A DNA stretch of 64,000 nucleotides, from the NCBI GenBank assembly GCA_964364455.1, contig CAYIMR010000003.1:23-64022 (forward strand). The letters run 5' to 3'. Both the position numbers and the translations under genes were made by a program. Below are positions 1,417 through 63,715 of the stretch, piece after piece. The stretch is from an uncultured Planctomycetales bacterium. Lineage in GTDB: Bacteria > Omnitrophota > Gorgyraeia > Zapsychrales > Zapsychraceae. How positions within the stretch are numbered: position 1 is the first letter of the stretch; each line of letters opens with the position of its first letter. The notes beneath the pieces were generated by a model. The model searched no databases. It was not told the DNA's origin and worked only from the letters and a program-made list of their open reading frames with translations.

Positions 1417-1453
1417 TTCTTTCCTGACATGCTTTTGGTGGAAGAGCTTGTCG

Positions 1454-1514
1454 GGGGACAGGTTGAAGGCCGCGGAGGTCACAGGGCGGGACGACAGAGG
1501 GACACAATACTTAA
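1454..1514. repeat. GGGGACAGG box, then a degenerate module B, then the 16-mer GGGACACAATACTTAA
   Basis: GGGGACAGGTTGA (1454-1466) is identical to 5122-5134. GTCACAGGGCGGGACGACAG resembles module B. The 16-mer at 1499-1514 is the exact reverse complement of 44075-44090. Confidence 0.8.
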
Positions 1515-1530
1515 GTGATAGAAGGAAACA

Positions 1531-2184
1531 ATGGAAATTGAAGAGAAAATCAGGAAACGATTTGAAGAATTGTTAAAAGTAGGTGACAAATTAAAGCACG
1601 GAAATGAGAGTGACCAAGTGCAAAACGAAGCGCATCGACAGGAGTGCATTGGCTGGCTTGCGTCGGCTCAAAATATTGTGCATTTGGTGGTAGCTAATCT
1701 TGGTAATCCTTATCGATTATCAGTAGATAAGATATGTAATGCTGACCGCGGATACTGCATTCAAAGGTCTGTTGGTGAAGTCGCTGTGATTTTGAGGTCA
1801 TTGCTTTATGATGTCGACTCAGGTTTGCTGGCTTCTATTGAGGATCAAACTAAAGCTTCCGTCTTCGATGATTTTTTAGATCATGCGAAAGAATATGCAA
1901 AACAAAAATTGTCAAAAGAGGCTGGTGTGATAGCCGGTGTCGTATTCGAGGACACCTTACGGAGTATTTGTCGTGCCAAGGGCATAGCCGAAAAAGACAG
2001 GAAACTGGATTCTTTGATTGACGATCTTGTTAAGGCAGGTGTATTGAGCCAGGTAAAAGCAAAAAGAGCGAAAGTTGCGGCCCATGTCCGCACAAAAGCA
2101 ACACATGCCCAATGGGACGAATTTGATTTAGGAGATGTCAATACGACGATTGATTTTACGGAAGACTTGATCCTTAATATCTAG
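1531..2184 (+). CDS. Hypothetical helical protein with a HEPN-like (DUF4145/Abi-like) C-terminus
   Basis: RBS GAAGGAAAC precedes the ATG. The C-terminal ...LIDDLVKAGVLSQVKAKRAKVAAHVRTKATHAQWDEF carries an R-x4-H motif in the context typical of HEPN/DUF4145 domains. No other family was recognised. Confidence 0.4.
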   Translation: MEIEEKIRKRFEELLKVGDKLKHGNESDQVQNEAHRQECIGWLASAQNIVHLVVANLGNPYRLSVDKICNADRGYCIQRSVGEVAVILRSLLYDVDSGLLASIEDQTKASVFDDFLDHAKEYAKQKLSKEAGVIAGVVFEDTLRSICRAKGIAEKDRKLDSLIDDLVKAGVLSQVKAKRAKVAAHVRTKATHAQWDEFDLGDVNTTIDFTEDLILNI

Positions 2185-2203
2185 AGAGAACAGAGAAGAA
2201 CAG

Positions 2204-2268
2204 GTGACAGTCACCCGTACCCCGTACGGGGACAGGCACTTTTGAAGGGGACAGGGTGAAGGTTGGGG
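2204..2268. repeat. Intergenic module B copy 1, followed by a GGGGACAGG box
   Basis: GACAGTCACCCG (2206-2217) equals 3583-3594. GGGGACAGGCA (2228-2238) equals 3598-3608. CTTTTGAAGGGGACAGG (2239-2255) equals 5114-5130. Contains the palindromes GTGACAGTCAC and CCCCGTACGGGG. Confidence 0.8.
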
Positions 2269-2356
2269 AAATCAAAAAATCCACCGCCGAGCTTAAAGAG
2301 GGAGTCGTTTCTATTGCGGCTACGCTCAATAAACATGGCCGGAGAGAGATGATAAA

Positions 2357-3511
2357 ATGAAAGCGCAAATAAAATCTGTTAAAAGAAATGCTTTCGACGA
2401 TGCAGTGTTATTTAGAGAAATTCGCGAGTTAATTCTTTCAGCGAGAAAAGCTGTCGTCAGAAATATTGATGCCATTCAGGTGATTACGAGTTTTGAAATT
2501 GGCCGCAGAATTGTGAAACATGAACAAAAAGGCTCTGCCCGCGCTCAATACGGGAAACAACTTCTTGTTGATCTTTCAACGCATTTAACTAACGAATTCG
2601 GGAGAGGGTTTTCCCGCTCAAATTTGGAATATATGCGTAAGTTTTATTTAGCATATCATGATCGTTCCGGGCAGATTCGGCAGATGGCGTCTGCCAAATA
2701 TAAAGACACCTCTGTCTCTGAAATTTCCCAGATGCCATCTGGGAAATCTACCGTAGCGCTTAAATCCCAGATACGTTCTGGGAAATCAATCAAGCCAGCA
2801 TTTTGTTTAAGCTGGTCTCAATATGTTTTTCTCACCGGAATTAAAGACGAAGACGCGCGCAGTTTTTACGAAATAGAAGCGGCAAGCAATAATTGGACTT
2901 TACCGGAACTTACCCGTCAGTTCAATTCAGGGCTGTATGAACGTTTGGCGTTAAGCCGGGATAAAGAAGGCGTACGAAAACTGGCAAAAGAAGGTCAGAT
3001 TATTTCTAAACAAGAGGACTTGCTTAAGGAGCCGTATGTATTGGAGTTCCTCGGGCTTGATGAAAATGCCAAGTATTCAGAATCTGATTTAGAGTCCGCC
3101 ATTATTGACAAGCTTGAACATTTTCTCCTTGAACTTGGTAAAGGATTCTTGTTTGAAGCGCGCCAGAAGAGATTTACATTTGATGAGGATCATTTTTTTG
3201 TAGATTTGGTTTTTTATAATCGTTTGATCGGGTGTTATGTTCTTATTGATTTAAAGATCGGGAAACTAACGCATCAGGACTTGGGGCAAATGCAAATGTA
3301 TGTGAATTATTTTGACCGCTATGTGAAAACAAAAGAGGAAGGCTCGACCGTTGGCATTATCCTTTGCCGTAAGAAGCGTGAAGCTCTGGTCAAAATCACG
3401 CTTCCCAAAGACGCGAATATCCATGCTAAAGAATACCGCCTGTACCTGCCGTCAAAAGAAGAATTAAGACGTAAGCTTCTCGACTGGACTAAAGACCGGG
3501 ATGTTTCTTAG
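2357..3511 (+). CDS. DUF1016/YhcG-family PD-(D/E)xK nuclease domain protein, paralog 1
   Basis: N-terminal ...FEIGRRIVKHEQKGSARAQYGKQLLVDLSTHL..FGRGFSRSNLEYMRKFYLAY and C-terminal ...FFVDLVFYNRLIGCYVLIDLKIGKLTHQDLGQMQMYVNYF are the hallmark YhcG/DUF1016 blocks (D...ELK nuclease core). Confidence 0.8.
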   Translation: MKAQIKSVKRNAFDDAVLFREIRELILSARKAVVRNIDAIQVITSFEIGRRIVKHEQKGSARAQYGKQLLVDLSTHLTNEFGRGFSRSNLEYMRKFYLAYHDRSGQIRQMASAKYKDTSVSEISQMPSGKSTVALKSQIRSGKSIKPAFCLSWSQYVFLTGIKDEDARSFYEIEAASNNWTLPELTRQFNSGLYERLALSRDKEGVRKLAKEGQIISKQEDLLKEPYVLEFLGLDENAKYSESDLESAIIDKLEHFLLELGKGFLFEARQKRFTFDEDHFFVDLVFYNRLIGCYVLIDLKIGKLTHQDLGQMQMYVNYFDRYVKTKEEGSTVGIILCRKKREALVKITLPKDANIHAKEYRLYLPSKEELRRKLLDWTKDRDVS

Positions 3512-3580
3512 CTTTTAAATAAAAAAGAAGAATATGCTCAAAGGATCCGAAACAATCGAGTTCAAGACAAAGGAATGAAG

Positions 3581-3608
3581 GCGACAGTCACCCGGGCGGG
3601 GACAGGCA
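3581..3608. repeat. Intergenic module B copy 2
   Basis: Exact 12-mer and 11-mer matches to 2206-2217 and 2228-2238. It lies immediately upstream of the truncated DUF1016 fragment. Confidence 0.8.
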
Positions 3609-3650
3609 TGGTGAGCTTCGCCGCTCGCCTCGTTTCACGGGCGAAGCGGG

Positions 3651-3938
3651 TTGGCGGTTGAACTTAAAATAGGTGATTTTAAGCCGGAATATGCGGGGAA
3701 AATGCAGTTTTATCTTTCCGCGCTCAATGAGCGGGATAAGCTTGAAGGAGAAAATCCGGCTATCGGTATTATAATTTGTAGAAGTAAAAGCCGGACCGTG
3801 GTTGAATACGCGTTAAAGGATGTGCACAAGCCCATAGGGGTTTCTATCTATTCTATTAAAAAGTCTTTGCCCAAAGCATTGCAAAAATATCTGCCGTCAT
3901 CAAAGGAACTGGCGGAAAGACTGGACGCGGTGAAATGA
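3651..3938 (+). pseudogene. 5'-truncated DUF1016/YhcG remnant (only the last ~95 codons remain)
   Basis: VELKIGDFKPEYAGKMQFYLSALNE..ENPAIGIIICRSKSRTVVEYAL aligns with the C-terminal third of paralog 3 (FELKIDDFKPEYLGKLNFYLEALDR..ENPSVGIILCKSKNDEVVEYAL). No N-terminal portion, no ATG and no RBS. Confidence 0.7.
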
Positions 3939-4021
3939 AATCAGCGAAATCAACGTGCCAGGCCTGCCTGCCGGCAGGCGCTTTTGAACACCTGCTCACT
4001 AACGTTCGCGGCGCGACGGTG
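3938..4021. repeat. Intergenic module A, copy 2
   Basis: AATCAACGTGCC (3948-3959) equals 5090-5101. Hairpin GCCTGCC-TGCC-GGCAGGC followed by CTTTTGA. The 17-mer at 4001-4017 equals 1396-1412. Confidence 0.8.
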
Positions 4022-4063
4022 ATTTGAATAATAAGCCGAAAGGAGAGAATAAGAGGTGATTGA

Positions 4064-5077
4064 ATGAAGATTATTAAACCGCTTGATAATCAGTTCGGGG
4101 AAGTCGTTCATTTAATTAAAAAAGCCCGTCTTAACGCGTTGCGAAGTGTTAATCAGGAATTGATTGAGCTTTACCGGCAAATCGGAAGTTATATCAGTGC
4201 AAGAGTCGAATGCGAAGAATGGGGGAAGGGGGTTGTGACTCAGCTGGCTGTGCATCTACGGGAAAGGCTCCCGGATTCAACAGGCTATTCCTCGCAAAAT
4301 CTCTGGCGTATGAAGCAGTTTTATGAGGTATACCGCAAATATCCAAAACTCTCAACACTGTTGAGAGAATTAGGCTGGTCCAGCCACCTGCATATTGTCT
4401 CTAAAACAAAAACTATCGAAGAAAAAGAATTTTATCTCCGGCTTGCCATTAAGGAAAGATATTCCGTCCGCGAACTGGAGCGCCAGATTGACAGCGGTTT
4501 ATTTGAACGCGTTGTGCTTTCCAGAAAGAAAGTTCCGGCATCGCTGACACAAAAGCATCCTGAAGCGCCGGAAGTATTCAAGGATGTCTATGTCCTTGAT
4601 TTTCTTAACCTGCCTGAAGTTCACAGCGAGACCGGCTTGCGAAGGAGCATTGTTTCTAACCTGAAGAATTTTATTCTTGAATTCGGCAAAGACTTTGCAT
4701 TTGTTGGCCAGGAACACCGGCTTCAAGTCGGTAAAAACGATTATTTCATCGACCTTCTGTTTTTTCACCGCGGCTTACGCTGTCTTGTTATGTTTGAGTT
4801 GAAGATAGACGATTTCAAACCCGAGTATCTGGGCAAGTTGAATTTTTATCTCGAGGCTTTAGACAGGGATGTAAGAAAACCGGATGAGAATCCGAGCGTT
4901 GGAATCATCCTCTGCAAATCAAAAAACGATGAAGTGGTGGAGTATGCCTTAAGCCGCAATCTTTCGCCCGCGCTTGTTGCCGAGTACAAGACAAAGCTTA
5001 TTCCCAAGAAGATATTGCAGAAAAAGCTGCATGAGTATTACCTGTTGGGCGAAAGCGGGGCAAGGAAGGAAAAATAA
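4064..5077 (+). CDS. DUF1016/YhcG-family PD-(D/E)xK nuclease domain protein, paralog 3
   Basis: GSYISARVECEEWGKGVVTQLAVHLRERLPDSTGYSSQNLWRMKQFY ... YFIDLLFFHRGLRCLVMFELKIDDFKPEYLGKLNFYL. RBS GAGGTGA lies upstream of the ATG. Confidence 0.8.
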   Translation: MKIIKPLDNQFGEVVHLIKKARLNALRSVNQELIELYRQIGSYISARVECEEWGKGVVTQLAVHLRERLPDSTGYSSQNLWRMKQFYEVYRKYPKLSTLLRELGWSSHLHIVSKTKTIEEKEFYLRLAIKERYSVRELERQIDSGLFERVVLSRKKVPASLTQKHPEAPEVFKDVYVLDFLNLPEVHSETGLRRSIVSNLKNFILEFGKDFAFVGQEHRLQVGKNDYFIDLLFFHRGLRCLVMFELKIDDFKPEYLGKLNFYLEALDRDVRKPDENPSVGIILCKSKNDEVVEYALSRNLSPALVAEYKTKLIPKKILQKKLHEYYLLGESGARKEK

Positions 5078-5150
5078 AAATCAACGAAAAATCAACGTGC
5101 CGGGCACTTTTGACTTTTGAAGGGGACAGGTTGAGGGCGAGGGGTTGGGA
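5077..5150. repeat. Module A copy 3 (short form) fused to a GGGGACAGG box
   Basis: AAAATCAACGAAAAATCAACGTGCC, then hairpin GTGCC-G-GGCAC with T-run, then CTTTTGAAGGGGACAGGTTGAGGGC. Exact matches to 3948-3959, 2239-2255 and 1454-1466. Confidence 0.8.
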
Positions 5151-29971: not shown

Positions 29972-31255
29972 ATGCTGTGGTCTAAATATTTCATTCCAAC
30001 ATTGAAGGAAACGCCGATCGGCGTGGAGGCGATGAGCCATCAGTTCCTTTTGCGCGGCGGGTTCGTGCATATGCTCACCTCGGGAGTTTATTCCTATCTG
30101 CCTTTGGGCTTGAAGGTCCTGCGCCGGATTGAACATATTATCCGCGAAGAAATGAACAATGCCGGCGCCGTGGAATTGTTCTTGCCGTGCCTGCAACCCA
30201 TCGAACTCTGGAAACAAACCGGCCGCGACGAGGTCCTCAAGGATGTCATGATCAAATTTACCGATAACCGCGGACGGGCCATGTGCCTGGGGCCCACGCA
30301 CGAAGAGGTCATTACCGATCTGGTCAAAAATTACGTCCAATCCTACCGGCAGCTCCCCGTCACTCTTTATCAGATCCAGACAAAATTTCGCGACGAGCTG
30401 CGCACGCGCTTTGGCATCGTGCGGGCCTGCGAATTCATCATGAAAGACGCGTACAGTTTCGACCGTGACCTTGAAGGTCTTAAAAAAAACTATCAATTGA
30501 TGTATGAAGCTTATCAAAATATTTTCCGCCGCTGCGGCTTGAACGCCGTGATCATCGAGGCGGATTCCGGGGACATGGGCGGAGACATGTCCCATGAATT
30601 TCTGGTGACCGCGCCGATCGGGGAAGATACCATTTTGCATTGCCCGTCCTGTCACAGCTACTGTTCTGTTTTCGGGGAACATGCCGAGGGCGCGAAGTGT
30701 CCCAAGTGCCATAAAGGCGCTCTTAAAGGGGAAGTGGCGATCGAGCTGGGACATATATTTCAACTGGGAGCGAAATACAGCCAGGCGCAACGCGCGCAAT
30801 TCCTGGATGAAGACGGGAAACAAAAGCCGATGATCATGGGCTGTTACGGTATCGGCGTCAGCCGCGTGATCGCGGCCATTATCGAAAAACATCATGATGA
30901 ACGTGGGATTCAATGGCCGGGCGAAGTGACGCCTTTTGACGTGGAAATTGTACCGTTGCCGGCGGGCAATGAGGCCGGGGAGATTGTGGATCTGGCACAG
31001 CGTTATTACAAGGAACTGGCCGCTTCCGGTTACGATGTTCTCTTGGACGACCGTTCGGAAACCGCGGGCGTGAAGTTCAACGACGCGGACCTTATCGGTA
31101 TTCCTTTACGCGTCATTATCGGCAAACGCAATTTGGCCGGGGGGAAGGTCGAGATCAAGGACCGCAGGAGTGGCGAGGCTGTGATTGTGGATAAAAACGC
31201 GATGGCCCAAAAGGTGGCTGAAATCCTTGGAGGAACCCCATGCCTGAAGAATTGA
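29972..31255 (+). CDS. proS: Proline--tRNA ligase, short bacterial-type form without the INS editing domain
   Basis: MLWSKYFIPTLKETP...GPTHEEVITDLV...QIQTKFRDELRTRFGIVRACEFIMKDAYSF...GHIFQLGAKYS... and a C-terminal anticodon-binding domain. A CxxC...CxxC segment sits where the INS domain is normally inserted. Confidence 0.88.
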   Translation: MLWSKYFIPTLKETPIGVEAMSHQFLLRGGFVHMLTSGVYSYLPLGLKVLRRIEHIIREEMNNAGAVELFLPCLQPIELWKQTGRDEVLKDVMIKFTDNRGRAMCLGPTHEEVITDLVKNYVQSYRQLPVTLYQIQTKFRDELRTRFGIVRACEFIMKDAYSFDRDLEGLKKNYQLMYEAYQNIFRRCGLNAVIIEADSGDMGGDMSHEFLVTAPIGEDTILHCPSCHSYCSVFGEHAEGAKCPKCHKGALKGEVAIELGHIFQLGAKYSQAQRAQFLDEDGKQKPMIMGCYGIGVSRVIAAIIEKHHDERGIQWPGEVTPFDVEIVPLPAGNEAGEIVDLAQRYYKELAASGYDVLLDDRSETAGVKFNDADLIGIPLRVIIGKRNLAGGKVEIKDRRSGEAVIVDKNAMAQKVAEILGGTPCLKN

Positions 31256-42882: not shown

Positions 42883-42887
42883 TCTTT

Positions 42888-42957
42888 GTATCTCGTATTT
42901 TGTATCTCGCATTCGTTTTAATAGCGACGAGATACGAGCGACGGTATACGAAATACG
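42888..42957 (+). terminator. Nested imperfect hairpin with a direct TGTATCTCG repeat after rplS, a likely terminator or RNA structure
   Basis: GTATCTCG (42902-42909) pairs with CGAGATAC (42928-42935). CGTATTT (42894-42900) pairs with AAATACG (42951-42957). TGTATCTCG occurs twice (42888 and 42901). Confidence 0.4.
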
Positions 42958-43592: not shown

Positions 43593-43957
43593 CGCACGAA
43601 CGCCTTGATCTGGGAAGGCTGGGGGAAGAACAGGCGGTGGCGCGGCTGAAAAAAGAGGGCTACCGCGTTATCGCGCGCAACTACCGCAACACCTTTGGCG
43701 AGATTGATATCATTGCCCAAGACGGCAAGACGTTATGTTTTGTGGAAGTGCGCACCCGCACCAAAGACTGGCACGGGCATCCCTTTGAATCGATTTCCTC
43801 AATAAAACAAAAAAAGATCATTCGCGCGGCGCGGGCCTATCTGGCGCGGGAAGACGCCGAAGACACCGACGCGCGCTTTGACGTCGTGGCCGTGATCCCC
43901 GATGAGGCCGGCGGCTTTACGGTCGAACTCATCAAAAACGCATTTGAAGTGGAGTGA
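43589..43957 (+). CDS. yraN: YraN-family (UPF0102) predicted endonuclease
   Basis: LGRLGEEQAVARLKKEGYRVIARNYRNTFGEIDIIAQDGKTLCFVEVRTR. ATGA overlap with rnhB (canonical rnhB-yraN synteny). Confidence 0.88.
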   Translation: MTHERLDLGRLGEEQAVARLKKEGYRVIARNYRNTFGEIDIIAQDGKTLCFVEVRTRTKDWHGHPFESISSIKQKKIIRAARAYLAREDAEDTDARFDVVAVIPDEAGGFTVELIKNAFEVE

Positions 43958-43960
43958 GCC

Positions 43961-43981
43961 CGGACACTCCGGGAGTGTCCG
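43961..43981 (+). terminator. Hairpin after yraN
   Basis: CGGACACT-CCGGG-AGTGTCCG, followed by TT. Confidence 0.35.
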
Positions 43982-43994
43982 TTGGCCATTGCGG

Positions 43995-44056
43995 GAAATA
44001 AGGGGACACGGAAATAAGGGGACAGAAATAAGGGGACACAGAAATAAGGGGACACG
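43995..44056. repeat. Four tandem copies of a 14-16 bp unit, GAAATAAGGGGACA(C)(N)
   Basis: Units at 43995-44010, 44011-24, 44025-40 and 44041-56, read directly from the sequence. Confidence 0.9.
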
Positions 44057-44090
44057 ATACTTAATTGAGGTGAGTTAAGTATTGTGTCCC
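44049..44090. repeat. Inverted repeat GGGACACGATACTTAA / TTAAGTATTGTGTCCC with a 10-nt spacer
   Basis: Arms at 44049-44064 and 44075-44090 with one G/T difference. The right arm is the exact reverse complement of 1499-1514. Confidence 0.9.
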
Positions 44091-44124
44091 GAATAATATG
44101 CCCCGAATAACATGGGAGATTGTT

Positions 44125-44685
44125 ATGCGTAAAAAAAATGTTGTAATCATGCTATTTGTCTTTGCGGGGATCATCGTTATCGTATACATGGGTGTTCTGA
44201 TCCCGCTCGCAGACAGCGAGGCAGGGCCTGTTTGCACCGCGGAGGCGAAGCTGTGTCCGGATGGTTCTTATGTCGGCAGGGTTTCTGCGCATTGTAAATT
44301 TGCGCCATGCCCCGGCAAGGATCTTCCCGCCGAATCCGCGCCGGGAGACTTTGGGTTTGAACAAGAAGTTGCCGCCAGCGGAATCGCGGGAGATGTGGTG
44401 CTGGGGCCCCTGTGTCCTGTTATAGGGCCCGGCATGGAAGAACAATGCGCGGACAAGGGCTATCAGACAACGCTTGTTGTTGAGGCCAAAGATGGAGGGC
44501 AGGAAGTTGCGCGAGTTCAATCCGGCGTGGATGGCCGATTTCGCGTTGTCCTTGCGCCGGGAGAATATATCGTCGCGCCCCTGTCTGGTGCCAGGCCATT
44601 ACCCAACTGTGAGATGCAATTTGTTACAGTCGAGCCGGGTCAATTCGCCCCGATGATGATCCATTGCGATACAGGCATGAGATAA
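44125..44685 (+). CDS. Hypothetical secreted or membrane-anchored Cys-rich protein
   Basis: MRKKNVVIMLFVFAGIIVIVYMGVLI anchor, then CTAEAKLCPDGSYVGRVSAHCKFAPCP, then a beta-rich region (...GVDGRFRVVLAPGEYIV, carboxypeptidase-regulatory-like flavour). ATG 44125 follows GGGAGA. Confidence 0.55.
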   Translation: MRKKNVVIMLFVFAGIIVIVYMGVLIPLADSEAGPVCTAEAKLCPDGSYVGRVSAHCKFAPCPGKDLPAESAPGDFGFEQEVAASGIAGDVVLGPLCPVIGPGMEEQCADKGYQTTLVVEAKDGGQEVARVQSGVDGRFRVVLAPGEYIVAPLSGARPLPNCEMQFVTVEPGQFAPMMIHCDTGMR

Positions 44686-45448: not shown

Positions 45449-45491
45449 ACTCCCTCAGGGAGGCAGAAATCAGATTCCCGCGTAAACGCGG

Positions 45492-45530
45492 GAATTCAAA
45501 TTGTGCGGAAACGCACGAATTCAAAAAGCG
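45492..45530. repeat. Direct repeat copy a (GAATTCAAATTGTGCGGAA ... CACGAATTCAAAAAGCG)
   Basis: The exact 19-mer 45492-45510 equals 46268-46286. The exact 17-mer 45514-45530 equals 46290-46306. Confidence 0.9.
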
Positions 45531-45549
45531 TCCGCGAAATAACCTCGGC

Positions 45550-46166: not shown

Positions 46167-46241
46167 CCTTTCGCGCGAAATTCCCTACTATTGTCTTATC
46201 CGCGCCGGCGAACGAGCGTTCAGAATTTTGTCCCGGGACGA

Positions 46242-46324
46242 GAATTCAAATTGTTGCGGAACGGCAAGAATTCAAATTGTGCGGAATATCACGAATTCAA
46301 AAAGCGGCCAAGTGGCCGCAATTG
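46242..46324. repeat. Direct repeat copies b and c, plus the GCCGCAATTG tail
   Basis: GAATTCAAATTGTTGCGGAACGGC (46242-46265) resembles 46585-46609. The stretches 46268-46306 duplicate 45492-45530. GCCGCAATTG at 46315-46324 equals 46616-46625. Confidence 0.9.
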
Positions 46325-46332
46325 CGATGAAT

Positions 46333-46421
46333 ATGAATAGGAGGCGTTACTATGAATAGGAGGCGTTACTGGTGGTGCCGGGCTAGGTTTAGTGCAGCGT
46401 GGCACTGGCAGTAACGCCTCC
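46333..46421 (+). repeat. Tandem 19-bp duplication (ATGAATAGGAGGCGTTACT x2), followed by a 13-bp-stem hairpin
   Basis: Units at 46333-46351 and 46352-46370. GGAGGCGTTACTG (46359-46371) pairs with CAGTAACGCCTCC (46409-46421). There is an inner stem GGTGCC/GGCACT. Confidence 0.85.
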
Positions 46422-46584
46422 GTAAAACCCCAAAAATAAATGGGAGGGGGATGAATCACGCTTTTTTAATTTGCTACCTAGCAGTTCTGCTTTTAGGAGG
46501 CATTGGGAATTGAGGAGTTTTAAGTTGTGAGCAGTGACCATGGCAACACTGGGTGTTACTGCGCGTCATTTCTGACACGCGTCA

Positions 46585-46625
46585 GAAATTCAAATTCTTG
46601 CGGAACGGCCACATAGCCGCAATTG
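46585..46625. repeat. Direct repeat copy d, abutting the AT-rich orphan gene
   Basis: GAAATTCAAATTCTTGCGGAACGGC...GCCGCAATTG. It is preceded by the 9-bp hairpin ATTTCTGAC-ACGC-GTCAGAAAT (46568-46589). Confidence 0.85.
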
Positions 46626-46673
46626 GGAACCAGAAAAAACCTGTCCTCATTACGACAAAAAGAGTTGAGCAAT

Positions 46674-63004: not shown

Positions 63005-63715
63005 ATGAACCTCATCCTCCTTTCACCTGACGACTTTATCAAACCCAAAACCCGCGTACGTCTGGATGACCGCCGTTACCTGCACATCCGGGATATCCAC
63101 CGCGCCAAAGAGGGCGATGAACTTTCCGTGGGCCTCATCGGCGGCCGCATCGGAACGGGAAAGATCGCTTCTCTGACCGGCGAAGCCATCGAAATGGATA
63201 TATCGTTGAACCTGCAGCCTCCGTCGCCGCTTCCGGTTACGCTCATTTTGGCCCTGCCGCGGCCCAATATTTTAAAACGCGCCCTGCAGGCGGCCAGCGC
63301 GATGGGCGTCAAAACAATTTTTCTCATCCACTCGAACCGGGCGGAAAAAAGTTTTTGGCTAAGCCCGGTGCTGAAGCCCGAAAAAATTCAGGAACAGCTG
63401 ATCTTGGGGTTGGAACAGGGGAAGGATACCGTTCTGCCCGATATTCAGTTACGGAAAAGTTTTAAACCATTTGTCGAGGATGAATTGCCCGAACTGATCC
63501 AGGGCACACGGGCGCTGATCGCCCACCCACAGGCGAGCGAGGAGTGCCCGCGCGACATTCGCCAGCCGGTCACCCTGATGATCGGCCCCGAGGGAGGATT
63601 TATTCCCTACGAGATCGAAAAGTTGACGGCACTGGGATTCACTCCGGTACATCTGGGCGATCGTATTTTGCGCGTCGACACCGCCGTCCCGGCCTTGCTG
63701 GCGAGATTGTTTTAA
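63005..63715 (+). CDS. rsmE: 16S rRNA (uracil1498-N3)-methyltransferase
   Basis: ...HIRDIHRAKEGDELSVGLIGG... and ...LILALPRPNILKRALQAASAMGVKTIFLI...LMIGPEGGF...E...LGDRILRVDTA. Confidence 0.85.
   Translation: MNLILLSPDDFIKPKTRVRLDDRRYLHIRDIHRAKEGDELSVGLIGGRIGTGKIASLTGEAIEMDISLNLQPPSPLPVTLILALPRPNILKRALQAASAMGVKTIFLIHSNRAEKSFWLSPVLKPEKIQEQLILGLEQGKDTVLPDIQLRKSFKPFVEDELPELIQGTRALIAHPQASEECPRDIRQPVTLMIGPEGGFIPYEIEKLTALGFTPVHLGDRILRVDTAVPALLARLF

Follow-up and report, generated by a model that had tools for sequence, protein, structure and literature searches.

The window analysed here is the whole 64,000-nucleotide stretch of DNA, and the site in question lies within the gene order trmD, rplS, rnhB, yraN, repeats, a 186-aa protein, DUF5674, a hypothetical protein, ORF6N, another hypothetical protein, fchA and folD. 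The stop codon of yraN occupies 43955-43957, and our reading of the sequence places the beginning of the repeats shortly 3' of it. The gene for the 186-aa protein, for which a Pfam search gave no match, starts at 44125 and is preceded by a GGGAG ribosome-binding site. An initial annotation of this DNA had described four tandem GAAATAAGGGGACA units and an inverted repeat after yraN, and both are there. The features needed for the argument, including two from near the left end of the window, are as follows.

43961-43981, no strand assigned: small perfect hairpin, CGGACACTCC-G-GGAGTGTCCG, directly 3' of the yraN stop; its link to the repeat family is putative
43994-44056, plus strand: left-end sub-terminal tandem units, about four copies of (G)GAAATAAGGGGACA(C), period 16, GGGGWSAS motif included
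44041-44066, plus strand: left arm (terminal inverted repeat), GAAATAAGG followed by GGGGACACGATACTTAATT, which fits the arm consensus of the family
44065-44074, no strand assigned: 10-nt spacer or loop, TTGAGGTGAG, read as the remainder of the element interior
44075-44090, minus strand: right arm core, TTAAGTATTGTGTCCC; its counterpart in full elements overlaps the transposase stop
44088-44114, plus strand: right-end sub-terminal units, 1.9 copies of CCCGAATAA(c/t)atg, of the 'CG' outer subtype, unlike the left end
1498-1516, plus strand: lone left-arm core, AGGGACACAATACTTAAGT, no partner arm, 16 nt 5' of the start of a DUF4145 gene
1445-5137, plus strand: five GGGGACAGG boxes in the spacers of island 1, at 1454, 2228, 2247, 3598 and 5122

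The GGGGACA motifs of the left array start at 44002, 44018, 44032 and 44048, at intervals of 16, 14 and 16 nt, and Tandem Repeats Finder reports 43994-44056 as 4.1 copies of period 16 with 89% matches. The last unit merges into GGGGACACGATACTTAATT. Across a gap of 10 nt, GGGACACGATACTTAA (44049-44064) pairs with TTAAGTATTGTGTCCC (44075-44090), making an inverted repeat of 16 bp with one G.T pair. The right arm carries GGGACAC, its G-run one base short, and to the right of the inverted repeat Tandem Repeats Finder gives a second short array at 44088-44114 (14 nt x 1.9, CCCGAATAA..GCCCCGAATAA). The CCCGAAT(T/A) outer type of this right end also occurs in other copies of the family described below, for example L204, L160 and L206. 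Since the outer subtypes differ between left and right and the right G-run is short, the window copy is a hybrid or has undergone some decay. The small hairpin at 43961-43981 has GGACAC/GTGTCC in common with the arms; it is present in one relative (L261) and absent in another (L258).

The 186-aa protein is found together with identical repeats in contigs from Hainich groundwater, where the repeats are the same in four contigs, and one of its homologues is annotated Candidatus Omnitrophica. Two of the Hainich assemblies (L003 and L006) end exactly within the tandem units or the arm, as expected if the genome has many copies of the repeat. At the same groundwater site, a G+C-rich contig (Hainich H41, L304 1770-1846) has a further arm, also of the AAATAAGG subtype, together with one extra unit.

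As the initial annotation had pointed out, 1499-1514 and the right arm are exact reverse complements, and in both places the 16-mer stands 16-35 nt 5' of a gene start (1531 and 44125). This closeness is one reason to consider an operator. According to that explanation a single DNA-binding regulator, such as the ORF6N protein, would bind the GGGGACA units, as iteron-like repeats, together with the inverted repeat, and would control the genes at 44125 and 1531. The other reason is that GGGGACAC recurs in both direct and inverted orientation, like the binding sites of proteins. We think the position just 5' of a gene most likely reflects nothing more than the shortness of the spacers. The sequence at 1499 is the lone left-end core of a second copy that is truncated or decayed. 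Lone arms are frequent elsewhere; a single exact arm core is found in 51 of 120 metagenome loci among the matches listed.

The counts of these motifs in the window are far beyond chance. The degenerate 16-mer GGGACACRATACTTAA has 3 matches in the 64-kb window where 0.01 are expected, and all of 100 shuffles gave fewer. For GGGGACA the count is 29, against an expectation of 7.1. It is the commonest intergenic 7-mer, with 11 occurrences in 3.3 kb, every one on the plus strand, and its intergenic density is about 14 times that in coding DNA (14 in 60.7 kb). The 14 coding matches, on the gene-bearing strand, have the look of normal coding sequence. An inverted pair resembling GGGGACA at 30563-30600, which we considered as a further copy, is within an ORF, where a repeated Gly-Asp-Met coding motif seems to have produced it incidentally. 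One of the intergenic occurrences (62738) falls within a c-di-GMP-I riboswitch (RF01051, 62687-62853, plus strand, 50.6 bits, above the gathering score) in the long spacer 5' of the gene at 63005.

Island 1, in which the copy at 1499 lies, contains an FRG gene, a DUF4145 gene and three YhcG/DUF1016 genes. It was said to be rich in GGGGACAGG boxes, and we find five, all of which fit GGGGWSAS and three of which sit inside the 25-nt repeat ACTTTTGAAGGGGACAGGKTGARGG. Their link to the family is weak: they have a 10-mer in common with one miniature subfamily, with 9 matches against 1.1 expected. The spacers of the island have other repeats as well. An 80-nt module is common to 1335-1412, 3948-4017 and 5077-5101, and is made of a doubled AATCAACG, a terminator-like G+C-rich hairpin with a T-run behind it, and CCTGCTC..AACGTTCGCGGCGCGAC. 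It sits after the FRG-domain gene and after two YhcG/DUF1016 genes, one of them a 95-aa fragment, and this placement suggests duplicated units. The three YhcG/DUF1016 genes are consecutive (2357-5077) and encode PDDEXK nucleases, the 95-aa C-terminal fragment being at 3651-3938.

Other repeats lie closer to the yraN site. A separate family, GAATTCAAATTGTGCGGAA..GAATTCAAAAAGCG, stands on both sides of the ORF6N gene in direct and inverted orientation (45465-45533, 46226-46309 and 46570-46628). In the 456-nt spacer 3' of the same gene (46332-46421) two exact tandem copies of the 19-mer TATGAATAGGAGGCGTTAC merge into a 26-nt inverted repeat (46359-46384 / 46396-46421). The rplS-rnhB spacer has two tandem copies of the 14-mer TTTGTATCTCGYAT and a 25-nt imperfect inverted repeat at 42885-42952.

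Four related Omnitrophota have 186-aa proteins that are 69-78% identical to the one in the window, so the same site can be compared among them. The spacer between yraN and the 186-aa gene is 167 nt here, 41 nt in L258 and 96 nt in L261. At the orthologous site neither the tandem repeats nor the family hairpin is present in L258 or L261, the latter having the small first hairpin only, and L259 and L260 carry other genes there. The region after yraN is thus variable among these relatives. Because the copy is absent from the orthologous site in four related genomes, it is a lineage-specific insertion and not a conserved control region. This counts against an operator for the 186-aa gene, since in none of the four relatives does the hairpin lie 5' of the orthologue.

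The window copy is a member of a dispersed family. Scanning one reference genome per species with the pattern GGACACRATACTTAA-N1-30-TTAAGTATYGTGTCC gave at least 120 loci with exact hairpins, in genomes labelled as more than ten phyla and with 3-9 copies in single genomes. The hosts include Omnitrophota, Elusimicrobia, Desulfofustis, Alpha- and Gammaproteobacteria, Planctomycetes, Acidobacteria, Cloacimonadota, Aminicenantes, Clostridia and Actinomycetota. The matches are mostly to metagenome-assembled genomes, with one isolate, Sedimenticola hydrogenitrophicus, among the hosts listed, and some phylum assignments that depend on a single match could be binning errors. Among 19 matches to the 16-mer in viral contigs there is one true hairpin copy (L022); the other 18 are coding or chance matches, L014 being the C-terminus of a methyltransferase-like ORF. 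GAAATAAGGGGACA gives only single, chance-like matches in viral contigs, and the consensus hairpin has no match in plasmids (PLSDB) or cultured phages.

The arms of these copies are laid out as AATT-NN-GGGGACACAATACTTAATTC, and from the outside to the loop the consensus is AATT-M-N-GG-GGACACAATACTTAA-TTC; its outer edge, at -8, is sharp. Loop lengths run from 6 to 30 nt, and the loop sequence is different in every copy, even inside one genome. The outer dinucleotide is identical on both arms in 91 of the 120 copies listed, where shuffling predicts 18.5, and is largely uniform within a genome; at core position 7, the single variable position of the core, A-T is replaced by G-C on both arms in 8 loci. 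About a third of the listed copies have extra tandem outer units, often mirrored on both sides, and the GGGGACA units of the window are such units: each of those in its left array repeats the outer part of the arm, like the arrays beside hairpins and full elements elsewhere. The units end at various points (after GGGG, GGGGACA(C), ACTT or ACTTAA). A single cut site would account for these varied endpoints less well than duplicated binding sites would, or than processing of the ends that slipped or was abortive.

The family has subfamilies and longer derivatives of its own. Genome LQ108M_Bin_12 has a subfamily (L203, L233, L236, L240, L243, L245, L254 and L255) whose loop of about 24 nt, TTCCGCCAAAACGGGGCGTGGGAA, is structured and occurs in both orientations, and which has extra outer layers, GTGGGACC... 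Gene-less derivatives with 100-200 bp between the arms are found at L285 (413-551 and 6654-6750), at L364 (4246-4453 and 8960-9059) and in L311, L296 and L359; they have conserved interiors (AATTCTGAAAAACAGGGACAGGCAC..., AATTCTAAGACGAAAAGCAGGTACAGGCAC...) with further GGGGWSAS-like motifs. We found neither a target-site duplication nor a consistent target among the copies of the family. At L156 (about 4700-4860) a 19-bp direct repeat, CGCTGCGGTCAGCCTTTGA, stands on either side of a composite hairpin, the sole long flanking duplication in 123 copies.

The neighbours of the copies decide against the operator. The 144 nearest genes match 182 Pfam families of ordinary metabolism and housekeeping, and clustering together with a Pfam census found no recurrent regulator, integrase or transposase among them. 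Two loci with paired hairpins have a gene between the pair, a response regulator in L159 and an HTH protein in L247, neither of them a transposase. Among the listed copies 39 lie in convergent, 44 in tandem and 15 in divergent spacers, so that convergent spacers are enriched, and 131 adjacent gene ends (at a median of 31 nt) stand against 79 adjacent gene starts. Against an operator stand the preference for gene ends, the unrelated housekeeping neighbours in many phyla, the arm spacing of anywhere from 6 to 30 nt, the outer stem that covaries between the arms, and the identity of the arms as the ends of a transposase-bearing element. Many neighbour types, placement at 3' ends and variable spacing together rule out both an operator and an island-border mark. 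We find nothing in support of the ORF6N protein as the regulator, and we hold control of the two genes by one such protein to be extremely improbable.

The second explanation offered by the initial annotation was that the 16-mer is the terminal or recombination sequence of a repeat family that marks the borders of accessory islands. Half of this survives. The arms are terminal inverted repeats, those of a Y1-transposase element; the marking of island borders is not supported, since the neighbours elsewhere are housekeeping genes. A stricter form of the idea, an attC- or dif-like site for site-specific recombination at the borders of cassettes or accessory islands, can draw on the variable region after yraN, on the short same-strand genes of island 1 with repeated spacers between them, and on the fact that in about a quarter of the hairpins the left and right outer parts differ in subtype, which recombination between copies could produce. 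However, no integrase or recombinase is nearby, none having been found among the window genes scanned, the 144 neighbours elsewhere are core genes, the spacer has no fixed length, and the layout, with perfect palindromes and conserved sequence in the stem, is unlike attC, an imperfect palindrome with outer R''/R' boxes and extrahelical bases. The link to a transposase accounts for the arms directly, and a recombination site is therefore a most unlikely reading. Layout and variable spacer also led us to reject integron attC, dif/Xer, telomere-resolvase and parS-like sites as a class. The ends of Tn7, Mu or IS21 transposons, with their multiple sub-terminal sites, were set aside because there are no such genes and the unit is a short palindrome.

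The preference for gene ends raises a different possibility, a role in RNA. The transcript hairpin would act as a terminator, attenuator or stabiliser between yraN and the next gene, or as a protein-binding leader with repeated GGA motifs. The fold is strong (-61.2 kcal/mol for 176 nt of RNA, z = -5.2), the family lies at short distances after gene ends with convergent spacers enriched, and the single mismatch of the window copy is a G.U on the transcribed strand. Yet a T-run terminator is not predicted, and the wobble mismatches of the family show no clear bias towards the transcribed strand (13 against 9). In Rfam 15 the locus matched nothing above noise up to E = 10, and a canonical copy gave only sub-threshold generic hairpins. 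Perfect palindromy on two strands and the association with a DNA transposase point to an origin at the level of DNA, with any effect on RNA possibly secondary. We regard a primary role in RNA as improbable, if somewhat less so than an operator or a recombination site. A CsrA-type GGA leader and a type III toxin-antitoxin repeat array were also considered and find no support given the family context.

The association with a transposase is observed directly at other loci. Scanning metagenome contigs with the single arm ATAAGGGGACACRATACTTAA gave at least 120 loci. Many lone arms are followed after 18-20 nt by a conserved ATG opening MARLARVVLPGYPHHITQRGNRR (ATG...MARLARVVLPGYPHH), and others, in the opposite orientation, come after the conserved 3' end of this gene. 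In at least 8 loci (L301, L299, L282, L318, L323, L371, L272 and L327) a pair of arms encloses a gene of 219-226 aa. The arms of these full elements are about 700 bp apart with the gene within, the right arm overlaps the stop codon (T-AAG-TATTGTGTCCCC), and each arm has tandem outer units on its outer side. The left arm of the window matches the left end of the full elements, which is the one 18-20 nt 5' of the transposase ATG. A six-frame motif scan found no family transposase gene in the 64-kb window.

The protein is a Y1/HUH transposase (PF01797 Y1_Tnp, E = 1e-14). Its best NCBIfam model is the REP-associated tyrosine transposase, at 68.6 bits, which is below the 80-bit cutoff, and the IS200 model reaches 18.6 bits. 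Among solved structures only 4ER8, E. coli TnpA-REP, is related, in an alignment that spans the HUH motif and the Y..NPVK.G tyrosine motif; the structures of IS608 and ISDra2 gave no match. At E <= 1e-20 there are at least 7,991 homologues. Since the loci above were found by their arms, the association was also tested from the other side, with homologues picked by protein similarity alone (P0054, P0122 and P0041). All three have both arms at the same positions (loci L382-L388). The identical P0054 protein occurs in three different gene contexts, once inside another copy of the element; this element is behaving as an insertion sequence. In the nested case (L384, 1082-2169) a full transposase element lies in the 3' portion of a second copy of the same gene, and the upstream gene is cut after ...YVELNPVK, exactly at the new left end.

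An arrangement of this kind has been described before. Di Nocera, De Gregorio and Rocco (2013) presented RAYT-like genes flanked by terminal inverted repeats that are not REPs and called the elements TIRtrons and the enzymes TIRYTs (PMC3733652). According to that paper, many of the repeats contain GGGGWSAS, their distance from the gene is constant, and the repeat families are moderately abundant, with single, dimeric or grouped repeats. GSU2396 is listed there as a TIRYT, and the transposase of our family is 63% identical to it over 119 aa. According to Quentin et al. (2018; PMC6006769), most TIRYTs probably belong to TnpA-REP subclass 2.1, whose C-terminal extension resembles a helix-turn-helix. 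Both papers give the GGGGWSAS consensus. The likeness to our family is close. GGGGACAC fits GGGGWSAS and occurs in all four left units and the left arm of the window, the right arm being one G short. In the related loci a RAYT-like Y1 gene has inverted arms at a fixed distance, the right one lying over its 3' end. The proteins have the HUH and tyrosine motifs and, at 219-226 aa, are longer than RAYTs, with a long C-terminal extension. Repeats of our family, too, are dispersed as single, dimeric or grouped units.

The differences should be stated as well. The window holds only a gene-less derivative. In our family an invariant core of about 19 nt lies in a 26-nt arm across more than ten labelled phyla, tandem sub-terminal units accompany an outer dinucleotide that covaries, and Omnitrophota and Elusimicrobia are among the hosts; in the available text of PMC3733652 we found none of these. 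A literature search for the arm sequence that included the supplements of PMC3733652 did not find it and returned only unrelated primers. We found no mention of TIRYT biochemistry in the available portion of the TIRtron and RAYT literature. In published terms the window copy is a TIR dimer, and functionally it is MITE-like or REPIN-like. The family is a dispersed selfish repeat, a new member of a kind already described.

Two better known systems resemble it in part. As in the REPIN-RAYT system (Bertels and Rainey 2011; Nunvar 2010; Ton-Hoang 2012), an inverted doublet forms a long hairpin whose spacer is different in each copy, the copies are extragenic and numerous, a Y1 gene lies between the same repeats, and lone units resemble decayed remnants. 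REPs are defined by a tetranucleotide tag, GTAG or CGTC, at one end of the repeat, to follow Di Nocera et al. (PMC3733652). The consensus of our arm, AATTMNGGGGACACAATACTTAATTC, lacks the tag. A REP unit is a short imperfect palindrome, whereas a single arm here is no such conserved palindrome; only the AATTAAGG subtype folds by itself, at -3.6 kcal/mol, and neither the CC subtype nor the arm in the window does so. Without the tag, and with an arm that folds alone in one subtype only, the family is not a classical REP. Its core is conserved across phyla instead of being specific to a lineage. RAYT groups are mostly reported as typically single-copy genes that are mainly inherited vertically, whereas the transposase here resembles that of an insertion sequence, with an identical protein in three contexts and one nested copy.

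The other system is IS200/IS605, with which the family has in common a Y1 HUH transposase of PF01797, a small element and the lack of a target-site duplication. The ends of IS200/IS605 are two different sub-terminal hairpins and not terminal inverted repeats. The transposase itself sets our family apart, with its low score for the IS200 model and no structural match to IS608 or ISDra2.

We are confident that 43994-44114 of the window is a non-autonomous, gene-less copy of an element that encodes a RAYT-like Y1 (HUH) transposase. The complete element measures about 0.75-0.8 kb. Its left end consists of tandem outer units and AATT-NN-GGGGACACAATACTTAATT, followed after 18-20 nt by the transposase gene of 219-226 aa. 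Its right end, overlapping the stop codon, is TAAGTATTGTGTCCCC-NN-AATT and then tandem units. On this reading the four GAAATAAGGGGACA units of the window are sub-terminal repeats of the left end, and its two CCCGAATAA units those of the right end. The anatomy of the window copy points to a left and a right end joined together with the gene between them deleted.

How such copies move can be proposed from better known enzymes. By analogy with E. coli TnpA-REP and IS608 TnpA, they would be moved in trans as single-stranded DNA, the enzyme recognising the end that bears GGGGWSAS and cleaving by way of a 5'-phosphotyrosine intermediate. Single arms mostly do not fold, unlike the end hairpins of IS200/IS605 and of REP enzymes, so the single-strand mechanism is offered by analogy only. 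The extra units may be additional binding sites, or may have arisen from slipped or abortive processing of the ends. An effect on the 186-aa gene, for example through a hairpin barrier that separates it from yraN, is hypothetical and would be no more than a side effect.

For this organism the conclusion is that the repeats after yraN are inserted selfish DNA, and they give no basis for believing that the DUF4145 gene and the 186-aa gene are regulated together. More generally, a very common and unstudied group of transposases is now tied to a concrete DNA end that is easily searched for and to gene-less derivatives, and this link reaches poorly known phyla such as the Omnitrophota and Elusimicrobia. 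The defined left and right ends and the variable outer dinucleotide are ready substrates for work on how the enzyme recognises its DNA. We also raise, as a tentative and rather doubtful suggestion, that the TIRYT lineage is an active transposon with miniature derivatives that spreads horizontally, keeping the core of its end invariant between phyla, and that the tandem units are functional or a record of processing and not just decay. If this is true, the lineage would contrast with the RAYT groups reported as largely vertical, single-copy genes, and the tandem GGGGWSAS units would be a multi-site platform for the C-terminal helix-turn-helix domain, or else the record of slipped processing.
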